A stretch of 9,616 nt of DNA from the IMG/VR virus record IMGVR_UViG_2778261570_000015; one strand, 5' to 3'. Both the position numbers and the translations under genes were made by a program. Under the pieces are notes generated by a model. It worked only from the letters and a program-made list of their open reading frames with translations. It did not search any database and was not told the DNA's origin. Source of the DNA: a virus. Its lineage: Duplodnaviria; Heunggongvirae; Uroviricota; Caudoviricetes. Shown piece after piece: positions 1-9,616 of the stretch (position 1 is its first letter; the number at the start of each line of letters is the position of its first letter).

Positions 1-294
<294 letters not shown>

Positions 295-600
295 CCGTCC
301 AGAAGAAGATATTTTCACTGGCTGGTATGTCGCCAAAATCCAGCAATATGACAGCAAAGTCTGGCATTAATACAGCAGATACAAGCAAAGTTTATCATTT
401 TCTGGTGGTAGGAGCGGATGCCTTAACTATGTCAGAAATTACGGTCGATGGTGTTAGCGTTGAGAAGGTCGGCGGCTGCGCCAGAGAATTTCTGGTCGTA
501 GATGGCTTTCTCTGCTCGCGTAGTGACTCCACAAAAACCTTCGTCCACACGCGCGACGTTAACGAAATGAGCGCGATGTATTGTGCATCTGGTGCTTCCA

Positions 601-628
601 ATAGTGAGTTTTCGGAGTCCATAAAAAA
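601..628 (+). repeat. Direct repeat copy 1 (AGTTTT-NN-GAGTCCATAAAAAA); partner at 6481-6504
   Basis: 14-nt exact match GAGTCCATAAAAAA at 615-628 and 6491-6504, extended to 20/22 identity by AGTTTT at 607-612 and 6483-6488. Confidence 0.6.
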
Positions 629-725
629 GAGCTTGCCGTTATGCGGCAACACGGTTTATGGTTATAAGGCACCTCATAAAACGGGTGCCGGGTTTCGCAG
701 CCCGGAAATGTACGAGGCGACACAT

Positions 726-747
726 GACGCGCCGAGCGTCTTTTTTT
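726..747 (+). terminator. Weak intrinsic terminator candidate (5-bp GC-rich stem, 5-nt loop, T7 tract)
   Basis: GACGC (726-730) pairs with GCGTC (736-740), followed by TTTTTTT (741-747). Short stem, so marginal. Confidence 0.35.
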
Positions 748-754
748 GTGCCGT

Positions 755-800
755 TAGCCAGACTCACACTTTTTTCAGTGATGCGGTTATAATCCGCGTC
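755..800 (+). promoter_or_regulatory. Sigma70-type promoter candidate for the primase operon; -10 TATAAT at 788-793 flanked by a GCGG/CCGC inverted repeat
   Basis: Perfect TATAAT hexamer at 788-793; the -35 region is poor (CACACT-like). GCGG (783-786) and CCGC (794-797) embrace the -10, an operator-like arrangement. First SD-bearing start codon downstream is at 950. Confidence 0.35.
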
Positions 801-949
801 GCTTGCAAAATTATGGTGGGCTGGACAGGGCAGCCGAAAGGCTGGCCGGTTTCCTTGTACGCCGGTACTGCGAACTCTGTTCAGTCCACCACCAGCGAGT
901 TTCGCAGCTCCGGTGGTGGGAAGAATTCCCAGTACAAGGAGGCTGCCAC

Positions 950-1144
950 ATGCTGGCTACTACCCCTACCCAAAAACCGCAATTTATCTGGATTATCGCC
1001 GCAGTTCGCCGCGATTGCCCGACAATTACCGCCAAAATTCATCATATTGCTGCCGAGTCTGAACGCGATGCTCGCCGTTCTCTGGTGCGCGATCACATCT
1101 GCTTTTTTGCTGGTCGTATCCGCATGGAGGTGGCACATGATTAA
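950..1144 (+). CDS. Hypothetical small protein, 64 aa (first gene of primase operon)
   Basis: ATG 950 preceded by AAGGAGG (936-942, spacing 7). Codons in this frame are enterobacterial-preferred (CGC/CGT, CTG, ACC, ATC); the alternative long frame here has CTA/TTA/AGG/ATA and about 6% Trp. Stop overlaps the next start. Confidence 0.55.
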   Translation: MLATTPTQKPQFIWIIAAVRRDCPTITAKIHHIAAESERDARRSLVRDHICFFAGRIRMEVAHD

Positions 1145-1355
1145 AACCTACGATGTGCATATGGATCCCCTCGAACGCACAAGCCAGATCATCACACTGA
1201 CAGAAGTGATTAACGACATTCTGGTGAGCAACTCTCCCTCACGAGACGAAAGACTGAAGGCGTTACTCGCGATATTGGATCTCGCCGTTCGTGACGTTCA
1301 TTTCCTGCTGGAAGGTGGACAAATGCCATGCAAAACGGGGGCAACCAATGAATAA
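1137..1355 (+). CDS. Hypothetical small protein, 72 aa
   Basis: ATG 1137 preceded by GGAGG (1126-1130); overlaps the previous stop (ATGATTAA). Same frame as the 288-1355 track ORF, of which it is probably the only real part. Confidence 0.55.
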   Translation: MIKTYDVHMDPLERTSQIITLTEVINDILVSNSPSRDERLKALLAILDLAVRDVHFLLEGGQMPCKTGATNE

Positions 1356-1542
1356 CTCAATTAATACCCCTCGCCTTACGTCCGCACTTCAATTAATCGA
1401 GCAAGCAGCGGCTGTCCTGGTTGCTGTCAGTCTTTCGGCTGAAGAAATGGACGCTGCTGATGTCGTGGATGCGATTAAAGCGTGCTCATCTTTGGTTAAC
1501 GATGCCCGTGCCGAGCTGGTAATTCTTGGGGGTGAAAAATGA
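1348..1542 (+). CDS. Hypothetical small protein, 64 aa (MNNSINTPRL...)
   Basis: ATG 1348 overlaps the previous stop at 1353-1355; GGGGG at 1336-1340 serves as SD. The track ORF 1291-1542 starts from an earlier in-frame ATG without an SD. Confidence 0.5.
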   Translation: MNNSINTPRLTSALQLIEQAAAVLVAVSLSAEEMDAADVVDAIKACSSLVNDARAELVILGGEK

Positions 1543-1802
1543 ATATCAACTTAATTTATCGTCATCCGTGTGAGCTGGAAATTGAATCATTGCTGGGGCG
1601 CGAAGAGCCATATCCAGACACATTCACTCCCGCAGATTGCGCGACTGAACGGCTTACCAGAGCGCGCACAGGTCTGGTTCATGTGATGAATGAGATTGTT
1701 CCCTCGGTGGGAGGGGAACAGGCGACAGTAATCAATAGCTGGCTACAAAAAGTTACCTCCCTGATAGATATCGGTTTAATCGATGTGGAGAGTGCGAAAT
1801 GA
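1539..1802 (+). CDS. Hypothetical small protein, 87 aa
   Basis: ATG 1539 overlaps the previous stop (ATGA); GGGGGTG upstream. Track ORF. Confidence 0.6.
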   Translation: MNINLIYRHPCELEIESLLGREEPYPDTFTPADCATERLTRARTGLVHVMNEIVPSVGGEQATVINSWLQKVTSLIDIGLIDVESAK

Positions 1803-2020
1803 CCAACATCCAGCTCATTGAAGCGCAATGTCGCATCGAACAGGTTCAGACTGTTTTAGGGTTCTGGCTTGAAGGGGCCAGCCCCAGCAACAGAGACAAG
1901 TTAATGATTGGCGCGGTTATGTCACTGCTCAATGGCGTACCAGAAGCTATTCAGGAAGCGGACGAATTGTTGGGCAAATATGAGTTACAGAATCATTCAG
2001 GCGAGGCGAAACATGAATAA
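1799..2020 (+). CDS. Hypothetical small protein, 73 aa
   Basis: ATG 1799 overlaps the previous stop (ATGA); GGAGAG upstream. Track ORF. Confidence 0.6.
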   Translation: MTNIQLIEAQCRIEQVQTVLGFWLEGASPSNRDKLMIGAVMSLLNGVPEAIQEADELLGKYELQNHSGEAKHE

Positions 2021-2615
2021 TTTCTTAACTTTCCATGCAGAAGCAACGCCTGACGGCGTAAACATCATGTACCGCAGCAACGATGGCATGACAGAACGCG
2101 TTGAGACCGTCTCATATATTGATGCCGTAAATCGTCTGGATGCCGGGGATTATGACGATAAACCAGATGAAGGCATGTTTATACATCTCGCTATTGCCAG
2201 TGGCGGCAACCAGGGATATTTCGATTACACATCACAGCATCACGTGATTATGTGGCGCTGGCTGATAGCAACAGCATTCATGCTGGAAATGAGAGAGGAA
2301 AACGGCACTGTCAGCATCATTGATGATACTGGCAATCCTTCCGAAGTGGCTGTTTATTCCAACGACATCGTCGCCATGCCGCTGTATCCAGTAGCAGAGC
2401 GCCTCGCTATGGCAAACAACATTGAGGGCGCGATGATAGAACGTTTTGGCATCGAGTCTGGCACAGAACGCGCCATCATTTTCTACAGAGCCATGATGGA
2501 TGTGGAACAAGGAGCACTGACTCCATTTGGTCGTGAAACGCTTGCTGAACTTCACAACAGCTTTATAGCTGAACTGAATGAAAACGGCATGCCAGCGGAA
2601 CCAGTGACGCACTGA
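2013..2615 (+). CDS. Hypothetical protein, 200 aa (MNNFLTFHAE...)
   Basis: ATG 2013 overlaps the previous stop at 2018-2020 with GAGG upstream. The track ORF 1908-2615 begins at an earlier ATG inside the preceding gene; the coupled start at 2013 is more plausible. Confidence 0.6.
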   Translation: MNNFLTFHAEATPDGVNIMYRSNDGMTERVETVSYIDAVNRLDAGDYDDKPDEGMFIHLAIASGGNQGYFDYTSQHHVIMWRWLIATAFMLEMREENGTVSIIDDTGNPSEVAVYSNDIVAMPLYPVAERLAMANNIEGAMIERFGIESGTERAIIFYRAMMDVEQGALTPFGRETLAELHNSFIAELNENGMPAEPVTH

Positions 2616-2625
2616 GGATGGAGCC

Positions 2626-2967
2626 ATGATTACTAAAAATTTCCGACTGAATGCGCTGGCAAATAAGTATGCGTCAGCACTGTATAACCACATTACCTCC
2701 ACCAGCGGCGGGGACTATTTCATGATTGATGCGGACGGAGAGGCCGTCCGTGTGGAAATCGTCAATGGAGTAAAAGGCGTTCGCAGCCTGATCGATAGTT
2801 ACGCACTGGCAGCCATGAAAGTGTTCTACCCGCAGTGGGAAACCGTGGGGATCGAGCTTCTTGATCGTTGCGTCACTAAGGACAGATTGACTGACGTCGG
2901 GCGTGAGATATGGCAAAGCATGGTTAATGACATGGGCGCAACTGTAGCGGGAGGTTCTCATGCGTGA
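2626..2967 (+). CDS. Hypothetical protein, 113 aa
   Basis: ATG 2626 with GAGGATGGAG upstream; 10-nt gap after the previous stop. Track ORF. Confidence 0.65.
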   Translation: MITKNFRLNALANKYASALYNHITSTSGGDYFMIDADGEAVRVEIVNGVKGVRSLIDSYALAAMKVFYPQWETVGIELLDRCVTKDRLTDVGREIWQSMVNDMGATVAGGSHA

Positions 2968-3331
2968 AAATGTAGAAATGGCGCTTAGCTCCGCAATCGG
3001 AGAGCAGGTGGCAAAGATTGCTGGTGCTGTGTGGATTCATAACCTTCATTCTACTGGTGAAGAGAAAATGGCAATTCAGACGCCAGAGGGACGCACCATT
3101 ACTACATCTCTGAAGCCGTCAGATGTTTGTGATCTGATTTGCGCATTCATGTACCCAGCAATGAGGACTGTCCACGGCGATAAGTGGAAACTTGCGACAA
3201 CCGCTGAATTTGATATGTGGCTAAACAATGATGGCATGCTGACTGATTACGGAATAACCAAGTGGCAGATGCTAGTTAGCCATATCGCAAACGCTATAGA
3301 CCACGTGGGGTACGGTGATGCGAAACATTGA
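2960..3331 (+). CDS. Hypothetical protein, 123 aa
   Basis: ATG 2960 overlaps the previous stop; GGGAGG upstream. Track ORF. Its 3' end overlaps the primase start by 14 nt. Confidence 0.65.
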   Translation: MRENVEMALSSAIGEQVAKIAGAVWIHNLHSTGEEKMAIQTPEGRTITTSLKPSDVCDLICAFMYPAMRTVHGDKWKLATTAEFDMWLNNDGMLTDYGITKWQMLVSHIANAIDHVGYGDAKH

Positions 3332-6074
3332 TCTTATCCGTCAGGTTATCAGTGCGTCTGAAAACAACTGGCCTCATGTGCTGGGCTGCCTGAACATAAA
3401 TGTCCCTGACTCTCCGCGCCGTCATGCTCCCTGCCCTGCATGTGGGGGCAAAGATCGATTCCGGTTCGATGACAACGGGCGCGGTAGCTTCATCTGTAAT
3501 CAGTGCGGCGCTGGTGATGGGCTGGATTTAATTAAACGCGTAAATAACTGCGACACAACAGAGGCGGCGCTTCTTGCCGCTGATGTTCTGGGTATTGATT
3601 ACCGGACAACGGAAACACCAGAAGCCACCAGCCAGAAACGGGAACAACTGGAAACCGAGCGCCAGCGACGCGAACAGGAGCGCCTGAAAAGGGCAGAGAA
3701 GGACGAACAACAAAGACGGGATACGTTTTCCCGTCAGTTTGATGACATGCGCAGAAAGGCTGTAAACGGCAAATCTGATTATCTGGTTGCGAAAGGGGTA
3801 GGTGATTTTACATTCCCCGTGTTGCCCGATGGATCTCTGTTGCTGGCGCTGGTGGATAAATCCGGCGCAGTAACAGCAGCACAGACTATTACCTCACATG
3901 GTGAAAAAAGACTCCTGACAGGTTCAGCAAAGCGAGGGGCATATCACGCCATAAACGCACCAGAAACAACACAGAGCATCTTAATCGCAGAAGGGCTGGC
4001 AACGGCATTATCTGCCCATTTAATGCGTCCAGAGGCGCTGACAGTGGCGGCGATTGATGCCGGGAACCTGTTATATGTCGCCCAGGTACTGCGGGATAAA
4101 TTTCCTTCAGCACAAATCATCATTGCTGCGGATAACGACCACAGCGAAGGAAGACAAAACACGGGGAGAATAGCAGCAGAAAAAGCAGCTTTATCTGTTT
4201 CTGGATGGGTGGCATTACCCCCGACAGATCACAAAGCAGACTGGAATGATTACCACCAAAAACACGGTATTAAATGCGCCACAGAAGCGTTCAATAAGTC
4301 AATGTACCAACCACAGGGTAATGGCGTGAAACAGGAGCCACAGACCATTGAGGGAAGCGATTTTAAGGTTATGGATACCGATCCACTGAAACCAAGAATA
4401 GAAAGCCGCGAGGATGGTATTTATTGGGTATCTCCGAGAGCTGACAGCCAGAGTGGAGAAATCATCAATAACGAAAGCTGGTTATGTTCTCCGTTAAGCG
4501 TTATCGGTACTGGCAGAGACGATAAAGACCAGTATCTCATTCTTCGCTGGCTGTCGTTTGGTTCTGAAACGCCGACAACCGCTGCCATTCCACTGGCTGA
4601 TATTGGTGAACGTGAAGGATGGCGCACACTTAAAGCTGGTGGGGTAAATGTCACGACCAAAAGCAGCCTCAGAGCAATACTGGCAGACTGGCTACAACGC
4701 AGTGGCTCTCGTGAATTGTGGCGTGTTGCTCATGCCACTGGCTGGCAATGCGGAGCGTACATCATGCCTGATGGGGAAATCATCGGAACACCTGAAAATC
4801 CTGTGCTGTTCAGCGGGAGAAGCTCAGCCGCAGCCGGATATACCGTCTCAGGGAGCGCGAAAAGCTGGCGTGATAACGTGGCGCGTCTGGCCTTTGGTAA
4901 CTATTCAATGATGACCGGGATCGGCGCAGCACTGGCAGCGCCATTGATTGGGCTGGTGGGCGCTGACGGGTTCGGCATTCATTTCTATGAGCAGTCGAGC
5001 GCAGGTAAGACCACCACGGCAAACGTGGCGAGCAGCTTATACGGCAACCCTGATTTACTGCGGCTGACGTGGTACGGAACCGCGCTGGGGCTGGCAAATG
5101 AGGCCGCCGCCCACAATGACGGACTAATGCCGCTTGATGAAGTTGGTCAGGGCGCTGATCCTGTCAGCGTTTCACAGTCTGCCTATGCGTTATTTAACGG
5201 TGTAGGGAAACTGCAAGGCGCTAAAGATGGTGGAAACCGGGATCTAAAACGCTGGCGTACAGTGGCAATCAGCACCGGAGAAATGGATTTAGAAACATTT
5301 ATCGCTACTTCCGGGCGAAAAACCAAAGCCGGGCAACTGGTGCGACTGCTGAATATTCCGTTGAGTAAAGCAGTACGCTTTCACGATTACCAGAACGGAA
5401 AACAGCACGCAGACGCACTGAAAGACGCTTACCAGCATCACCACGGCGCGTCCGGGCGTGAGTGGATTAAATGGCTGGCAGACCACCAGCAACAGGCTAT
5501 TAAAACCGTTCGTGACTGCGAAAGCAGATGGAGAAGCCTGATCCCATCCGATTATGGTGAGCAGGTTCACCGTGTAGCCGCGCGATTTGCCATTCTGGAG
5601 GCCGCATTGTTGTTAGGCGAGGTTGTAACAGGCTGGGATGCTCAGACATGCCGTGATGCGATACAGCACAGCTATAACGCATGGTTGCGCGAGTTCGGCA
5701 CAGGTAACAAAGAGCATCAGCAGATTATTGAACAAACGGAGGCATTTCTTAATGCCTATGGGCTTAGCCGTTTTGCACCATTTCCATACAGCCCGGCAGA
5801 TTTGCCCATCAAAGATTTAGCCGGATACCGTCAGCGTGGAGAACATGACGAAAGCCCAATGATTTTCTACACATTCCCGGCCACATTTGAAAAGGAGATC
5901 GCATGTGGTTTCAACGCAAAACAGTTTGCTGAAGTGTTGAAAAAAGCCGGGATGCTAACCCCACCAAACAGCGGTCGTGGATACCAAAGAAAATCACCAC
6001 GTATTCAGGGACGACAAATAAACGTTTATGTACTCAATTACCAGCCAGGAGATTATAACTCATCTGAAGAATGA
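3318..6074 (+). CDS. DNA primase-helicase (replication initiator), about 918 aa: N-terminal zinc ribbon, TOPRIM primase core, P-loop NTPase domain (phage P4 alpha-like / DUF927-like architecture)
   Basis: Zinc ribbon CPACGGKDRFRFDD...CNQCG (about 3420-3524). TOPRIM signatures IAEG and AADNDHSEGR (about 3972-4244). Walker A-like SSAGKTT and Walker B-like LMPLDEVGQ (about 4980-5150). Start ATG 3318 (GGGG at 3307-3310); the track's GTG 3315 is too close to the SD. Confidence 0.9.
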   Translation: MRNIDLIRQVISASENNWPHVLGCLNINVPDSPRRHAPCPACGGKDRFRFDDNGRGSFICNQCGAGDGLDLIKRVNNCDTTEAALLAADVLGIDYRTTETPEATSQKREQLETERQRREQERLKRAEKDEQQRRDTFSRQFDDMRRKAVNGKSDYLVAKGVGDFTFPVLPDGSLLLALVDKSGAVTAAQTITSHGEKRLLTGSAKRGAYHAINAPETTQSILIAEGLATALSAHLMRPEALTVAAIDAGNLLYVAQVLRDKFPSAQIIIAADNDHSEGRQNTGRIAAEKAALSVSGWVALPPTDHKADWNDYHQKHGIKCATEAFNKSMYQPQGNGVKQEPQTIEGSDFKVMDTDPLKPRIESREDGIYWVSPRADSQSGEIINNESWLCSPLSVIGTGRDDKDQYLILRWLSFGSETPTTAAIPLADIGEREGWRTLKAGGVNVTTKSSLRAILADWLQRSGSRELWRVAHATGWQCGAYIMPDGEIIGTPENPVLFSGRSSAAAGYTVSGSAKSWRDNVARLAFGNYSMMTGIGAALAAPLIGLVGADGFGIHFYEQSSAGKTTTANVASSLYGNPDLLRLTWYGTALGLANEAAAHNDGLMPLDEVGQGADPVSVSQSAYALFNGVGKLQGAKDGGNRDLKRWRTVAISTGEMDLETFIATSGRKTKAGQLVRLLNIPLSKAVRFHDYQNGKQHADALKDAYQHHHGASGREWIKWLADHQQQAIKTVRDCESRWRSLIPSDYGEQVHRVAARFAILEAALLLGEVVTGWDAQTCRDAIQHSYNAWLREFGTGNKEHQQIIEQTEAFLNAYGLSRFAPFPYSPADLPIKDLAGYRQRGEHDESPMIFYTFPATFEKEIACGFNAKQFAEVLKKAGMLTPPNSGRGYQRKSPRIQGRQINVYVLNYQPGDYNSSEE

Positions 6075-6097
6075 GCTTCTTCATGTGCGTAGAAAAG

Positions 6098-6126
6098 GTG
6101 TTGGTTCAGTTGGTTCAGTTGGTTCA
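6098..6126 (+). repeat. Three tandem direct iterons GTTGGTTCA (first copy extended to GTGTTGGTTCA)
   Basis: Copies at 6098-6108, 6109-6117 and 6118-6126, read directly from the sequence. Confidence 0.7.
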
Positions 6127-6168
6127 ATTTGTAAAGAGTATTGTTTTATAAGGATTTTATTCTTTTTA

Positions 6169-6212
6169 TTGAACCAACACTGAACCAACAACACGGTATT
6201 TTGAACCAACAC
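6169..6212 (+). repeat. Three inverted-orientation iterons TGAACCAAC(AC), reverse complement of the upstream iterons
   Basis: Copies at 6169-6180, 6180-6191 and 6201-6212; centre spacing about 11 and 20-21 bp, roughly one and two helical turns. Confidence 0.7.
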
Positions 6213-6260
6213 AATGTGACTGAATTGATGCGCACAACACCTGGCTGGCATCAGAGAGTG

Positions 6261-6281
6261 TTTTACGAGACTTTCGTAAAA
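6261..6281 (+). promoter_or_regulatory. Palindromic operator-like site O1: TTTTACGA-N5-TCGTAAAA (core TACGA-N5-TCGTA)
   Basis: 8-bp perfect inverted arms at 6261-6268 and 6274-6281. Confidence 0.45.
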
Positions 6282-6318
6282 TCCTGTGTACAAGGGCGTG
6301 ACGTTTTTGAAAGTGAGC

Positions 6319-6337
6319 ACTACGAAATTTTCGTAGT
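6319..6337 (+). promoter_or_regulatory. Palindromic operator-like site O2: ACTACGAAA-T-TTTCGTAGT (core TACGA-N5-TCGTA)
   Basis: 9-bp perfect inverted arms at 6319-6327 and 6329-6337; same core and spacing as O1, 57 bp downstream. Confidence 0.45.
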
Positions 6338-6480
6338 TCAGAAAACAGCCTCTGAGAAGTTGTTATGCCTGTTCAGCAAACCATCCGCATAGCTGATCGC
6401 GAATCAAATTACCAATGGAGCCAGAAGCAAGGGCAGAACTGAAAAGCGCCTGCCGTGAAGAGTAATGCGACACCATAAAT

Positions 6481-6504
6481 ATAGTTTTTAGAGTCCATAA
6501 AAAA
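6481..6504 (+). repeat. Direct repeat copy 2 (AGTTTT-NN-GAGTCCATAAAAAA)
   Basis: See copy 1; lies 27 bp upstream of the 6531-6564 terminator. Confidence 0.6.
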
Positions 6505-6530
6505 CCTGTCAAAACCTGACACACAGAACG

Positions 6531-6564
6531 ATGCCACCAGCTACTGAGCGGTGGCATTTTTTTG
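6531..6564 (+). terminator. Rho-independent terminator, + strand
   Basis: ATGCCACC (6531-6538) pairs with GGTGGCAT (6550-6557), 11-nt loop, then TTTTTTT (6558-6564). No T-tract on the opposite strand, so unidirectional. Confidence 0.65.
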
Positions 6565-6584
6565 TGCTATTTGTTTCATATTTT

Positions 6585-6632
6585 GCAATTACGATGATGA
6601 ATATTGCGATTTGTGAAACTATAATAACTGTT
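6585..6632 (+). promoter_or_regulatory. Promoter candidate for the downstream operon; -10 TATAAT at 6620-6625
   Basis: Perfect TATAAT 34 bp upstream of the SD of the 6659 ORF; weak -35 (ATGAAT, 17-bp spacer); AT-rich upstream region. Confidence 0.4.
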
Positions 6633-6658
6633 GTTTTATACAGTTCTAAGGGGGCGTT

Positions 6659-6820
6659 ATGGCTATTTCAGTAAAGCCGGTATTGATAAGTGAGAAGCAA
6701 ATGGAAGCGATAAAGAAAATTCAGGAAGAGCAGCGTAAAAAATCAGGAATTGGAGTAGCGCCAACTCTGCATGAAATTGCACGAGGGTTAATAGATAAGG
6801 CGCTGGCAGGCTGTATGTGA
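6659..6820 (+). CDS. Small 53-aa protein, possible ribbon-helix-helix (CopG/Arc/MetJ-like) DNA-binding regulator; absent from the ORF track
   Basis: ATG 6659 preceded by AAGGGGG (6648-6654); stop TGA 6818-6820. Translation MAISVKPVLISEKQMEAIKKIQEEQRKKSGIGVAPTLHEIARGLIDKALAGCM has a short N-terminal beta-strand-like segment followed by two predicted helices. Next gene starts 16 nt downstream. Confidence 0.5.
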   Translation: MAISVKPVLISEKQMEAIKKIQEEQRKKSGIGVAPTLHEIARGLIDKALAGCM

Positions 6821-6836
6821 AAATGGATGGCATCGC

Positions 6837-7298
6837 ATGGAACTAAAATTTATTGATAACCCTGTGCGATTACAGGCCTTTCTTAACGAGCCAGGCAATA
6901 CCGAAAATATTGTTGAGCCGGGGCACACGTACTACATCAAGCCTGATGCGGTATATCTCGGCATCTACGAAGGATTAGTGCTGGCTGGCGTTCATGAAGT
7001 GCGTAACTTCTGGCATAGCGTTGTTGAATGCCATGCGGTGTACGACCCCGGATTCCGTGGTGAATATGCACTGCAAGGACATCGATTATTCTGCAAATGG
7101 CTTCTCGAAAACTCACCATTCCTTAACAGCATCACTATGGTTCCTGACACCACGAAATACGGACGGGCAATTATCCGTTTGCTTGGCGCTACCCGTGTTG
7201 GTCACCTTGATGATGCTTATATCAGATGTGGTAAACCCGTCGGCGTAACGCTTTATCAGTTAACTCGGCAACAATATAAGGAATTCAGCGAATGTTAA
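6837..7298 (+). CDS. Hypothetical protein, 153 aa
   Basis: Track ORF; ATG 6837 with GGATGG upstream; stop overlaps the next start. No family recognised. Confidence 0.7.
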   Translation: MELKFIDNPVRLQAFLNEPGNTENIVEPGHTYYIKPDAVYLGIYEGLVLAGVHEVRNFWHSVVECHAVYDPGFRGEYALQGHRLFCKWLLENSPFLNSITMVPDTTKYGRAIIRLLGATRVGHLDDAYIRCGKPVGVTLYQLTRQQYKEFSEC

Positions 7299-7969
7299 TT
7301 ACCCATATAGCTCATAAACATCTCAATCGTGCCGTATACGAAAAAGGCGGTGATGGTGGTGCCTCTAAAGCTCAGGCGAAGGCCCAGCAGCAGGCAATTG
7401 ATTTGCAGCGCGAGCAGTGGAATACGGTGATGAATAATCTCAAGCCGTATGCAGAAGTCGGATTGCCTGCTTTACAACAACTACAAGGACTGATGACTCT
7501 GGAAGGGCAGAATAAAGCCGCGAATGATTTCTTTGGTTCTGGTTTATATAAAACACAGGCAGATCAGGCCCGTTATCAGAACCTTGTCTCAGCAGAAGCT
7601 ACCGGGGGGCTTGGCTCAACAGCTACCAGTAACCAGTTATCTTCCATTGCGCCCATGCTTTATAACAATTGGCTTAGTGGGCAAATGCAAAATTATGGAA
7701 ACCTGCTAAATGTCGGGATGAATGCGGCATCAGGGCAGGCAACGGCAGGGCAAAACTACGCCAATAATACCGGACAACTCTTGCAGGGGCTTGGCGCTAT
7801 TCGTGCAGGTCAGGCGCAGCAGCCATCCAGTCTTGCGCGTGGTATTGGTGGGGCAGCATCAGGCGCTTTAGCGGGTGCGCAACTTGGTTCCGTTGTTCCT
7901 GGAATAGGAACTGCGGCCGGCGCTATTGGTGGTGGGCTTATTGGTCTTGTTGGGGGGCTTGGATTCTAA
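7292..7969 (+). CDS. Ala/Gln/Gly-rich protein, 225 aa, with a glycine-zipper hydrophobic C-terminus; putative internal-virion/ejection-type protein
   Basis: Track ORF; start overlaps the previous stop; AAGGAA upstream. Low-complexity AQ-rich N-terminal part; C-terminus GIGTAAGAIGGGLIGLVGGLGF. Composition resembles podovirus internal core proteins; not verified by homology. Confidence 0.65.
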   Translation: MLITHIAHKHLNRAVYEKGGDGGASKAQAKAQQQAIDLQREQWNTVMNNLKPYAEVGLPALQQLQGLMTLEGQNKAANDFFGSGLYKTQADQARYQNLVSAEATGGLGSTATSNQLSSIAPMLYNNWLSGQMQNYGNLLNVGMNAASGQATAGQNYANNTGQLLQGLGAIRAGQAQQPSSLARGIGGAASGALAGAQLGSVVPGIGTAAGAIGGGLIGLVGGLGF

Positions 7970-9288
7970 TGGCGACATGGCAACTTGGCGGGCTGCCTAG
8001 CATGGCACCGCAAAATGATAATGCTCCTCGTTCTTCCGTTCCTCAGCCTGTGCAGTATCAGCAGCAGCCAAACGTAGGTTTAATGGCGCTACAGGGGCTA
8101 AGAGGCGTTGCTGAGATTAATCAGCAGGCGCAAATTTCCCAGCAGCTAAAAGAATATCAGGCACGGTTGGGTAGTGCGGTAGCTAATAATGATCGTGTTG
8201 GCGTGCAGAAGTTAATGGCCCAGTATCCCCAGTTTATGGCTGATTCTCAAAAACAGATGGGATTCATTGATGCTGAGCAAAATCGGCAGACCGCTGACGC
8301 TGCCATGAATCTGCGTCTTGCGTCACAAACTGGAGATCCACTGACCATGCAGAAGGCCATTCAGCAGGCAAATCCAGTATTACAGCGATTTGGTCTTCCT
8401 GCTGAAGAGGTTTATCAGTCTTGGCAGAATGACCCACAGGAATTCAACAGAATCACTGACCTCATCCACCTCCATGCTGATCCAAATAGTTACTTTAGTG
8501 TTCAAGAGAAGCAGCAAGGGCAGAGTATTGCACAGCAGAACGCAGATACATCTGCATATAATGCTCAGGTTAATGCGGAGCAGGGTAATCGGCGGCTCGA
8601 TATGGAGCAGTTCAAAGTCCTATCCGATAACCAACTACGCACGAGAGAAATGGTTCTGAAAGCACGACTTGGACGTGCTCAAAATGACATCGAGAGAGAC
8701 AAGCTCAATGCTGAACTGAGCAAGGTACAGCAGGCGAAAGTGGAGAAGATGAACGATAAAATTAATACTGTTGCAGGTAATATCGACTCCTTGAACTCTG
8801 CGCTTGAAGTGGGTCATGAACTGGCGGGAATTGTAGGGAAACATCCTTCGGCCGTTACCCGTTCGCAGAACTATAACCCCCTGACGCTGGGGTTTGGATT
8901 CCTCCCTGATGTAGCAGAAGACACACGAAGCCTACGCGCCAAAGCTGATGAATACAACCTAAAGGTTATTCTGCCTAGCCTAAAAGGTACTTTTGGCTCT
9001 AACCCAACCGAAGGGGAAAGGGCTGCCCTTATGCAATCTCAAAATGGCATTAAGTCAGCAACCAGCAATGAGGCATTTTTGCGAGAGTTGAATAAAGCGC
9101 AGGACGTAATTATTCGAATGCAGAAACGACAGATTGCCGGGCTCGGTATTCCTGTAACCAAATCTAAGGACGAAGAAACTGATACCAAAATGCTGTTGCA
9201 GGATCCTTCACTGGTTAAGGATTATGTGACCGCACATGGCTATCTGCCGGAAAGTTACTATCAGGCAAAACTTAAGGGATGGCAATGA
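7969..9288 (+). CDS. Gln/Ala-rich protein, 439 aa; putative internal-virion/ejection-type protein
   Basis: Track ORF; TAATG overlap with the previous gene and TGA overlap with the next. Q/A-rich, coiled-coil-like composition. Confidence 0.7.
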   Translation: MATWQLGGLPSMAPQNDNAPRSSVPQPVQYQQQPNVGLMALQGLRGVAEINQQAQISQQLKEYQARLGSAVANNDRVGVQKLMAQYPQFMADSQKQMGFIDAEQNRQTADAAMNLRLASQTGDPLTMQKAIQQANPVLQRFGLPAEEVYQSWQNDPQEFNRITDLIHLHADPNSYFSVQEKQQGQSIAQQNADTSAYNAQVNAEQGNRRLDMEQFKVLSDNQLRTREMVLKARLGRAQNDIERDKLNAELSKVQQAKVEKMNDKINTVAGNIDSLNSALEVGHELAGIVGKHPSAVTRSQNYNPLTLGFGFLPDVAEDTRSLRAKADEYNLKVILPSLKGTFGSNPTEGERAALMQSQNGIKSATSNEAFLRELNKAQDVIIRMQKRQIAGLGIPVTKSKDEETDTKMLLQDPSLVKDYVTAHGYLPESYYQAKLKGWQ

Positions 9289-9616
9289 TGGCACAACTGA
9301 CAGAAAAACAGAAAGCCTATTCCCGTCATCTCGATGAAAAATATGGTTTCCCATCAGGGACGATGGAAACATTAGTTGGCAATGAATCTAGTGGTAACGG
9401 AAGTGCCGAGTCACCGAAAGGAGCTAGAGGATTTGCTCAACTGATGCCCTCAGTAATGAGTGATGCTGGTTATCGTGGAACAGATCCGCGCTCACTGCCA
9501 TTTGAAAAGCAAATGGATATCGCAGCAAACCATCTCAATAAAGGAATGAAGCGATTTGGTGTGAACCGCCCCGGGTTTCCTGGAGAGTGTTTTATCTGTG
9601 AACTCAGGCTGCCAGA
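9285..9616 (+). CDS. Lytic transglycosylase (SLT) domain protein, N-terminal fragment; gene continues beyond the window
   Basis: ATG 9285 with AAGGGATGG upstream, overlapping the previous stop. Translation contains GNESSGNGSAESPKGARGFAQLMP, matching the SLT catalytic signature (ES...A.S..GA.G..Q), at the same N-terminal position as in T7 gp16-type internal virion protein D. Open to the end of the window. Confidence 0.7.
   Translation, partial: MMAQLTEKQKAYSRHLDEKYGFPSGTMETLVGNESSGNGSAESPKGARGFAQLMPSVMSDAGYRGTDPRSLPFEKQMDIAANHLNKGMKRFGVNRPGFPGECFICELRLP

Follow-up and report, generated by a model that had tools for sequence, protein, structure and literature searches.

The Rep proteins of the staphylococcal SaPIs are self-loading helicases in which a C-terminal winged helix recognises the iterons of the origin (PMC9371898). 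Immediately 3' of rep lie six to twelve iterons, divided equally between the two sides of an AT-rich centre and facing in opposite directions, and neither the binding nor the melting of this site by Rep requires ATP (PMC9371898). The origins of Gram-negative PICIs are also composed of two iteron sets around an AT-rich region 3' of pri-rep (PMC6092414), and EcCICFT073 is the sole Gram-negative PICI origin that has been functionally tested (Fillol-Salom et al. 2018, PMC6092414). EcCIMP1 is a PICI that excises and is transduced by the P22-like phage Kapi1 (Pick et al. 2025, PMC11773190); neither an origin nor iterons are mentioned in the paper describing it (PMC11773190). The satellite P4 has a different arrangement, with crr immediately 3' of the alpha gene and ori approximately 4.5 kb away, upstream of the operon.

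The window analysed here is a stretch of viral DNA of 9,616 bp, and we assign a probability of roughly 0.85 to the reading that an EcCIMP1-like PICI replicates from an iteron array at 6098-6212, which would serve as its origin or as one of two origin modules. The initial annotation had proposed a layout of initiator sites plus an unwinding element. This proposal is supported by the conserved geometry of the array among related loci, the co-variation of the iterons with a hairpin of the initiator, the homology of that initiator to SaPIbov1 Rep and the EcCIMP1-like PICI context, and on these grounds the layout is, at the sequence level, that of a SaPI/PICI-type origin in every feature compared. 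The origin is ordinary in layout and previously undescribed; a literature search with the iteron string found no paper, although Fig. 2a of PMC6092414 might still draw such an origin.

Comparison of the window (55-9561) with EcCIMP1 revealed 98.7% nucleotide identity over 9.5 kb, with the genes, the iterons and two arrays in common. Judged from this identity, the window very probably represents an EcCIMP1-like PICI, a satellite of P22-like phages. In E. coli cq9, an island of approximately 19 kb between yicC and dinD contains the window; along it, an integrase, an HTH regulator (AlpA-like), AntA/B, DUF4222, 'Ash', small ORFs, the primase, ejection-protein genes and perC follow one another, whereas EcCIMP1 is located at tRNA-Thr (proA-yagU) and has another integrase. 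EcCIRM13514, which is also found at yicC-dinD, encodes a D5-type primase. The region 5700-6900 of the window was matched in 574 of 5426 complete E. coli genomes.

The gene order 3' of the primase consisted of a 53-aa ORF followed by homologues of P22 gp14, gp7 and gp20. These ejection and head-completion homologues (gp14 being DUF2824) occupy 6837-9288, within which 6930-7325 has 90.7% DNA identity to the helper phage Kapi1; gp16 is truncated in cq9 and full length in EcCIMP1. The minus strand at 436-549 resembles, with 86-90% identity, the pac-containing portion of the P22 small-terminase gene (gene 3). Of the 22 positions of the P22 pac 22-mer, 16 match in its alignment to 522-543, and the helper Kapi1 gave no megablast match in this segment, which is a candidate signal by which P22-like helpers could be hijacked for packaging. 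Rfam placed c4-a1b1 at 656-708, isrK at 669-746 (69 bits) and C4 antisense RNA at 809-896 (81 bits). An Icd-like ORF, which is intact, comes next at 950-1144, and by its sequence features the region 656-1144 is classed as an RNA immunity module of the P1/P4 type. This module lies within a 355-aa 'Ash family' ORF (288-1355), a call that is doubtful because its Pfam match (aa 124-232) overlaps the RNA genes. EcCIMP1-like islands with an integrase have also been deposited as closed circular 'plasmids' of 12.2 kb (NZ_CP148430.1) and 19.2 kb (CP031370.2), and a 21.8-kb record (CP031371.2) was seen as a search match only. Such circular records suggest excised, possibly replicating episomes in ordinary cultures.

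A repeat finder and direct reading of the sequence revealed six copies of the 9-mer GTTGGTTCA within 111 bp, with no exact match elsewhere in the window. Iteron block A (6100..6126, plus strand) is made up of three tandem copies at 6100-6108, 6109-6117 and 6118-6126 with a period of 9. Iteron block B (6170..6210, minus strand) contains three further copies at 6170-6178, 6181-6189 and 6202-6210, where the plus strand reads TGAACCAAC; their start-to-start spacing is 11 and 21 bp, whereas in EcCIMP1 it is 21/21. Longer 11-mer forms could be located at 6098 (GTGTTGGTTCA) and at both 6170 and 6202 (TGAACCAACAC). The 9-mer is the most repeated of the window, and when up to one mismatch was allowed it gave 8 matches compared to 2.21 ± 1.33 expected, a count reached in 0 of 200 shuffles. 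The first iteron begins 26 nt past the stop codon (6072-6074) of the ORF 3315-6074. The three direct and three inverted iterons, the 11-mer forms, the spacing of the inverted copies by about one and two helical turns and the location immediately downstream of the primase gene had all been claimed in the initial annotation, and each agrees with these measurements.

The spacer between the two blocks (6127..6169), a candidate DNA-unwinding element, has the highest AT content of any 43-mer in the window and was also its least stable duplex over 40 bp (nearest-neighbour dG of -42 kcal/mol vs a mean of -56.4, sd 3.7). It had been described as 41 bp long with approximately 85% AT; the AT-richness holds at 83.7%, but the length between the 9-mer cores is 43 bp. 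The spacer holds the motif TGTTTTATAAGG, which is kept across iteron classes, and the spacers of 60 loci had a median length of 43 bp and a median AT fraction of 0.785, with conserved tTGtTTTatAaGg / TGtTTTATAAGG. The leader between the stop codon and the first iteron (6075..6099) contains a partly palindromic CA(C/T)GTG-centred motif (inverted repeat I5) that is conserved across loci, and an alignment of 60 origins gave the leader consensus tttttCAcgTgcG.a.aaa..gt. Just past block B, a CCTGGCTGGCA motif occurs at 6240..6250 on the plus strand; of 59 related loci, 22 carry it between +149 and +171, and in 7 of these 22 the motif at this position is an exact Chi site, GCTGGTGG.

Several elements further 3' of the array could be recognised. 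Palindromes are present at 6261-6281 (TTTTACGAgacttTCGTAAAA) and 6319-6337 (ACTACGAAAtTTTCGTAGT), and AAAACCTGWC is repeated in tandem at 6501-6520. On the plus strand, a strong hairpin that resembles a terminator, including a T-run, occupies 6522-6566. The region 6261-6566, which separates the origin from the late genes, could have a regulatory function or encode a small RNA. The 53-aa ORF (6659-6820) has no Pfam match and is conserved with 43-85% identity 3' of the origin in many related islands.

No DnaA box was found in 6075-6260, a single IHF-like match (6149-6161) was at chance level, and a sigma-70 promoter scan of 5900-6900 returned none. The iteron plasmids (pPS10, R6K, RK2, F, P1) resemble the window in having repeated initiator sites beside an AT-rich unwinding element, with extra clusters elsewhere. 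However, these plasmids carry direct repeats of 17-22 bp, encode RepA-type proteins and depend on DnaA and on DnaB/DnaC, whereas the window has 9-bp inverted sets and an initiator that is itself a helicase; direct iterons of the plasmid length, DnaA boxes and a Rep_3-type initiator were all lacking.

The primase-helicase gene (3315..6074, plus strand) encodes a protein of 919 aa according to the ORF list and Pfam. Pfam analysis revealed a Zn-ribbon (aa 35-70), a Toprim domain (aa 222-319) and a DUF927 helicase domain (aa 366-644), while the C-terminal domain (aa 645-919) gave no Pfam match. Homology to P4 alpha (33% identity, E 2e-41) is confined to the N-terminus, which corresponds to the primase part of alpha, and the remainder is not similar to alpha; no P4 domain was matched in the PDB searches with this protein. 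Residues 341-919 match SaPIbov1 Rep, a replication initiator-helicase (PDB 8tch; E 8.9e-12), and more weakly the SCCmec helicase Cch. Identity to the SaPI initiators was approximately 14-15% in structural alignments. A phmmer search of the PDB with the C-terminal 179 aa gave nothing useful, and it took the longer fragment and structure searches to reveal the homology. The AlphaFold models, of moderate confidence (pLDDT 71 for aa 645-919 and 81 for aa 810-919), showed a helix-turn-helix followed by a beta-hairpin that holds residues 892-897. A winged-helix origin-binding domain is predicted accordingly at aa ~820-912 (5772..6050, plus strand), and the codons for residues 892-897 (RKSPRI), the hairpin or 'wing' segment, are located at 5988..6005 on the plus strand. 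Plasmids with DUF927 proteins of 32-33% identity exist; the presence of a Rop gene on the single one inspected, a small plasmid, points to replication of the ColE1 type.

Homologues of the primase occur across Enterobacterales. When one genome of each species was scanned, 77 loci with such a homologue were recovered, and 61 of them had enough downstream sequence for analysis. In 59 of the 61, the iteron array started 22-31 nt past the stop codon, or 48 nt in the case of L041, with a fixed geometry of tandem copies at approximately +25, +34 and +43, a spacer, and inverted copies at approximately +95, +106 and +127. About 25 loci continue with six extra copies (two plus one, then three tandem) ending near +285. 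The same repeat score was reached by 4.9% of random 330-nt windows from the same loci. The iteron sequence was uniform inside each locus and varied between loci, and eight in-register variants could be distinguished: GTTGGTTCA, GTTGTCTCA, GTCGGTTCA, ACGGGTTAT, GTGGGTTAT, CTTATCCCA, GTCGGGTAA and GTCGGTTTG. If a single co-evolving protein reads all 6-12 sites, they would be expected to change uniformly while keeping a fixed geometry, as is seen here. Conservation in related elements, which the initial annotation had made a test of its reading, was thus found for position, orientation and spacing, and it is the sequence of the iteron itself that changes.

In relatives, ssb or perC comes directly after the origin. 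No array was present within 6 kb of two homologous primase genes, L050 (7734) and L057 (8709). The primase ORF of L050 is followed directly by ssb, which looks like an origin deletion. The Yersinia pekkanenii locus (L033) carried three separate arrays, at approximately -5735 to -5477, at approximately -1153 to -895 and 3' of the primase stop codon. Its primase match is stretched over 3.9 kb, and a protein with an HNH-endonuclease domain on the same contig matches the C-terminal query; this could reflect an insertion or duplication in the replication module.

The iteron classes were compared with the initiator proteins. In a sliding-window comparison of GTTGGTTCA-class and GTTGTCTCA-class proteins, between-class identity differed from within-class identity only in the last ~120 residues. 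Only 7 of 1083 alignment columns split the two classes, and five of these are contiguous at residues 892-897, where QRKSPRI of the GTTGGTTCA class is replaced by QGRV-RE in the GTTGTCTCA class (class B). Each of the remaining iteron classes has its own version of this segment. Iteron distance correlated with the distance across residues 886-906 after the rest of the protein was removed (partial Mantel r = 0.84, 0/2000 permutations), a correlative result in which shared ancestry is only partly controlled and class B may be a single event; the converse partial correlation was negative. Loci in which the P4-type primase head has been swapped out retain both the C-terminal domain and the iterons. 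The segment 892-897 may tentatively be regarded as a simple, swappable recognition code with at least eight mutually orthogonal replicon specificities, a proposal that we hold jointly with that of a bipartite origin considered below.

The inverted repeats could alternatively form a hairpin or cruciform, serving as a transcription terminator or an RNA element that closes the primase operon. The single-stranded DNA does fold well (-28.8 kcal/mol, z = -7.35 vs shuffles), and an Rfam search of the whole window gave weak hairpin-type matches on the array (6099-6190). However, these matches are of the miRNA type and far below threshold (24 bits vs 95-211) and are hairpin artefacts, and the two arms are not collinear (9/9 vs 11/21), an asymmetry that is kept in nearly all related loci. 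Moreover, no T-run follows the array, blocks C and D of the relatives could not pair, and a hairpin would leave the co-variation with the protein unexplained. We consider this explanation highly improbable and retain that of a replication origin.

Compared with the SaPI origins, the locus has the site immediately 3' of the initiator gene, at 26 nt here and similarly in 59 of 61 loci; opposed iteron sets that flank an AT-rich region (3 + 3, and 6 or 12 in relatives, against a SaPI range of 6-12); a helicase initiator with a predicted C-terminal winged-helix domain; and an iteron sequence matched to a specificity determinant, as indicated by the co-variation of eight variants with residues 886-906. 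It differs from SaPIbov1, SaPI1 and SaPI5 in its Gram-negative host, in its iteron length (9 bp against 5-6 bp), in having a Zn-ribbon/Toprim primase of the P4-alpha type fused to the helicase instead of a SaPI-type primase, and in the second array that the island carries kilobases away. EcCICFT073 is like the window in being a PICI with the origin 3' of pri, iterons in both orientations and ssb/perC downstream. However, its 584-aa initiator has D5_N/DUF5906/Pox_D5 domains and no BLASTP similarity to the primase-helicase of the window, and its iterons are CTGTCTACC-like as against GTTGGTTCA. The EcCICFT073 origin was rejected as a member of the same family on account of the unrelated primase.

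The resemblance to P4 is of another kind. The N-terminal primases are homologous, tandem iteron pairs occur in both at a 9-bp period, both iterons contain GTTCA, and both elements have two iteron-bearing cis sites kilobases apart, one of them immediately 3' of the initiator gene. By contrast, the D5_N/DUF5906/Pox_D5 helicase and origin-binding domains of alpha are not similar to the DUF927 and C-terminal domains of the window's protein, so that domains of the alpha type are absent here, and the P4 type I iteron TGTTCACC is likewise missing. The iteron GTTGGTTCA does differ from the P4 octamer, as had been claimed. Placement 3' of rep had been likened to that of both SaPI/PICI-type and P4-type replicons; the former likeness stands, whereas the latter holds only in part, the 3' site of P4 being crr and not ori.

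The initial annotation had suggested looking for a crr-like second site. None is present within the window, but the complete island (L001) carries arrays at 20401-20511 and 28543-28663, the second lying 8.1 kb downstream and outside the window; EcCIMP1 shares this second array. In the second array, three copies with a spacing of 21/21 come first, then an AT-rich spacer and a tandem block of three, so that it mirrors the first. It is located directly upstream of perC, with equivalents at 3736-3856 in L079 and 8436-8556 in L084 (NZ_CP148430.1). Its tandem block abuts the TATAAT-containing ttgcttatctatataat, which also occurs after the last iteron block of relatives with 12 iterons. The closed circle pZ1323CEC0013_1-4 (12,152 bp) is the same island without the ejection-protein genes, and its arrays are 1.9 kb apart. 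Among relatives, arrangements of 12 adjacent iterons and of split arrays separated by 0.3-8 kb could be observed; in relatives other than these islands, the second block adjoins the first or is 0.3-5 kb from it. The region between the arrays looks like a slot for variable cargo, because both the distance and the content differ between relatives.

The location of tandem iterons immediately before a promoter-like TATAAT upstream of perC would fit repeats that act as operators for another DNA-binding protein, such as the 53-aa ORF, which occurs in many relatives; a packaging or partition site is a related option. Yet, when six small neighbouring ORFs were assessed as iteron binders, none was present in every iteron-bearing locus, and it is the C-terminus of the primase that co-varies with the iterons. 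Neither a ParB nor a TerS gene is annotated in the element, and the homologue of the P22 pac region lies elsewhere (436-549). Operators, packaging and partition are therefore given hardly any credence as explanations of the array.

The mirror-image array 8.1 kb away means that initiation might occur there instead. The array beside the primase would then be an accessory cis site, comparable to P4 crr or to a copy-number or handcuffing cluster, with replication starting at the second array or needing both. This is the chief rival to the origin reading and the chief residual uncertainty. It is favoured by the two six-iteron arrays, each with its own AT-rich spacer, in the complete island, EcCIMP1 and L084, by the relatives with 12 adjacent or split iteron sets, and by P4, where the site in the corresponding position is crr. 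Against it, many relatives show the six-iteron module of block A, spacer and block B alone within the 6 kb examined, this module has the complete anatomy of a SaPI-type origin, and the SaPIs and EcCICFT073 have their origin 3' of rep (PMC9371898, PMC6092414). The rival is improbable on this balance. The two arrays, both of which have an unwinding element of their own, may cooperate in the manner of P4 ori and crr or constitute a double origin. It is possible, if doubtful, that the origin of the whole family is bipartite, with two six-iteron halves bounding the cargo slot, and this is held together with the recognition code at 892-897.

Under the preferred reading of the array as an origin, we infer binding, melting, self-loading and the actual start site from the repeats, their position and conservation, the co-variation and the homology to SaPIbov1 Rep, all of which were observed directly. 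Upon induction by a helper phage, the island would express the 919-aa primase-helicase. Its C-terminal winged-helix domain would recognise the 9-bp GTTGGTTCA, and the beta-hairpin around residues 892-897 would add specificity. With three opposed sites per side, the protein would be bound to the left and right of the 43-bp AT-rich spacer; this DNA would melt, and the DUF927 hexameric helicase would load itself. The fused Toprim primase of the P4-alpha type would then lay primers, and a host polymerase would complete synthesis. Counted against the origin reading are the unrelated initiator of EcCICFT073, which is the only tested Gram-negative case, the two loci without an array (L050 and L057), the lack of a DnaA box, the chance-level IHF-like match and the moderate confidence of the protein models.

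These results supply the absent origin annotation for EcCIMP1-like islands, which match about one-tenth of the complete E. coli genomes. They describe a Gram-negative PICI with a helicase and origin-binding module homologous to that of the staphylococcal SaPIs, fused to a P4-type primase, and the presence of this combination in a PICI connects three satellite lineages through their replicons. Our overall understanding of PICI replication is unchanged. The eight natural pairs of iteron and hairpin represent a ready set for studying how self-loading helicases read their origins, and they predict which islands would be incompatible or cross-replicating.
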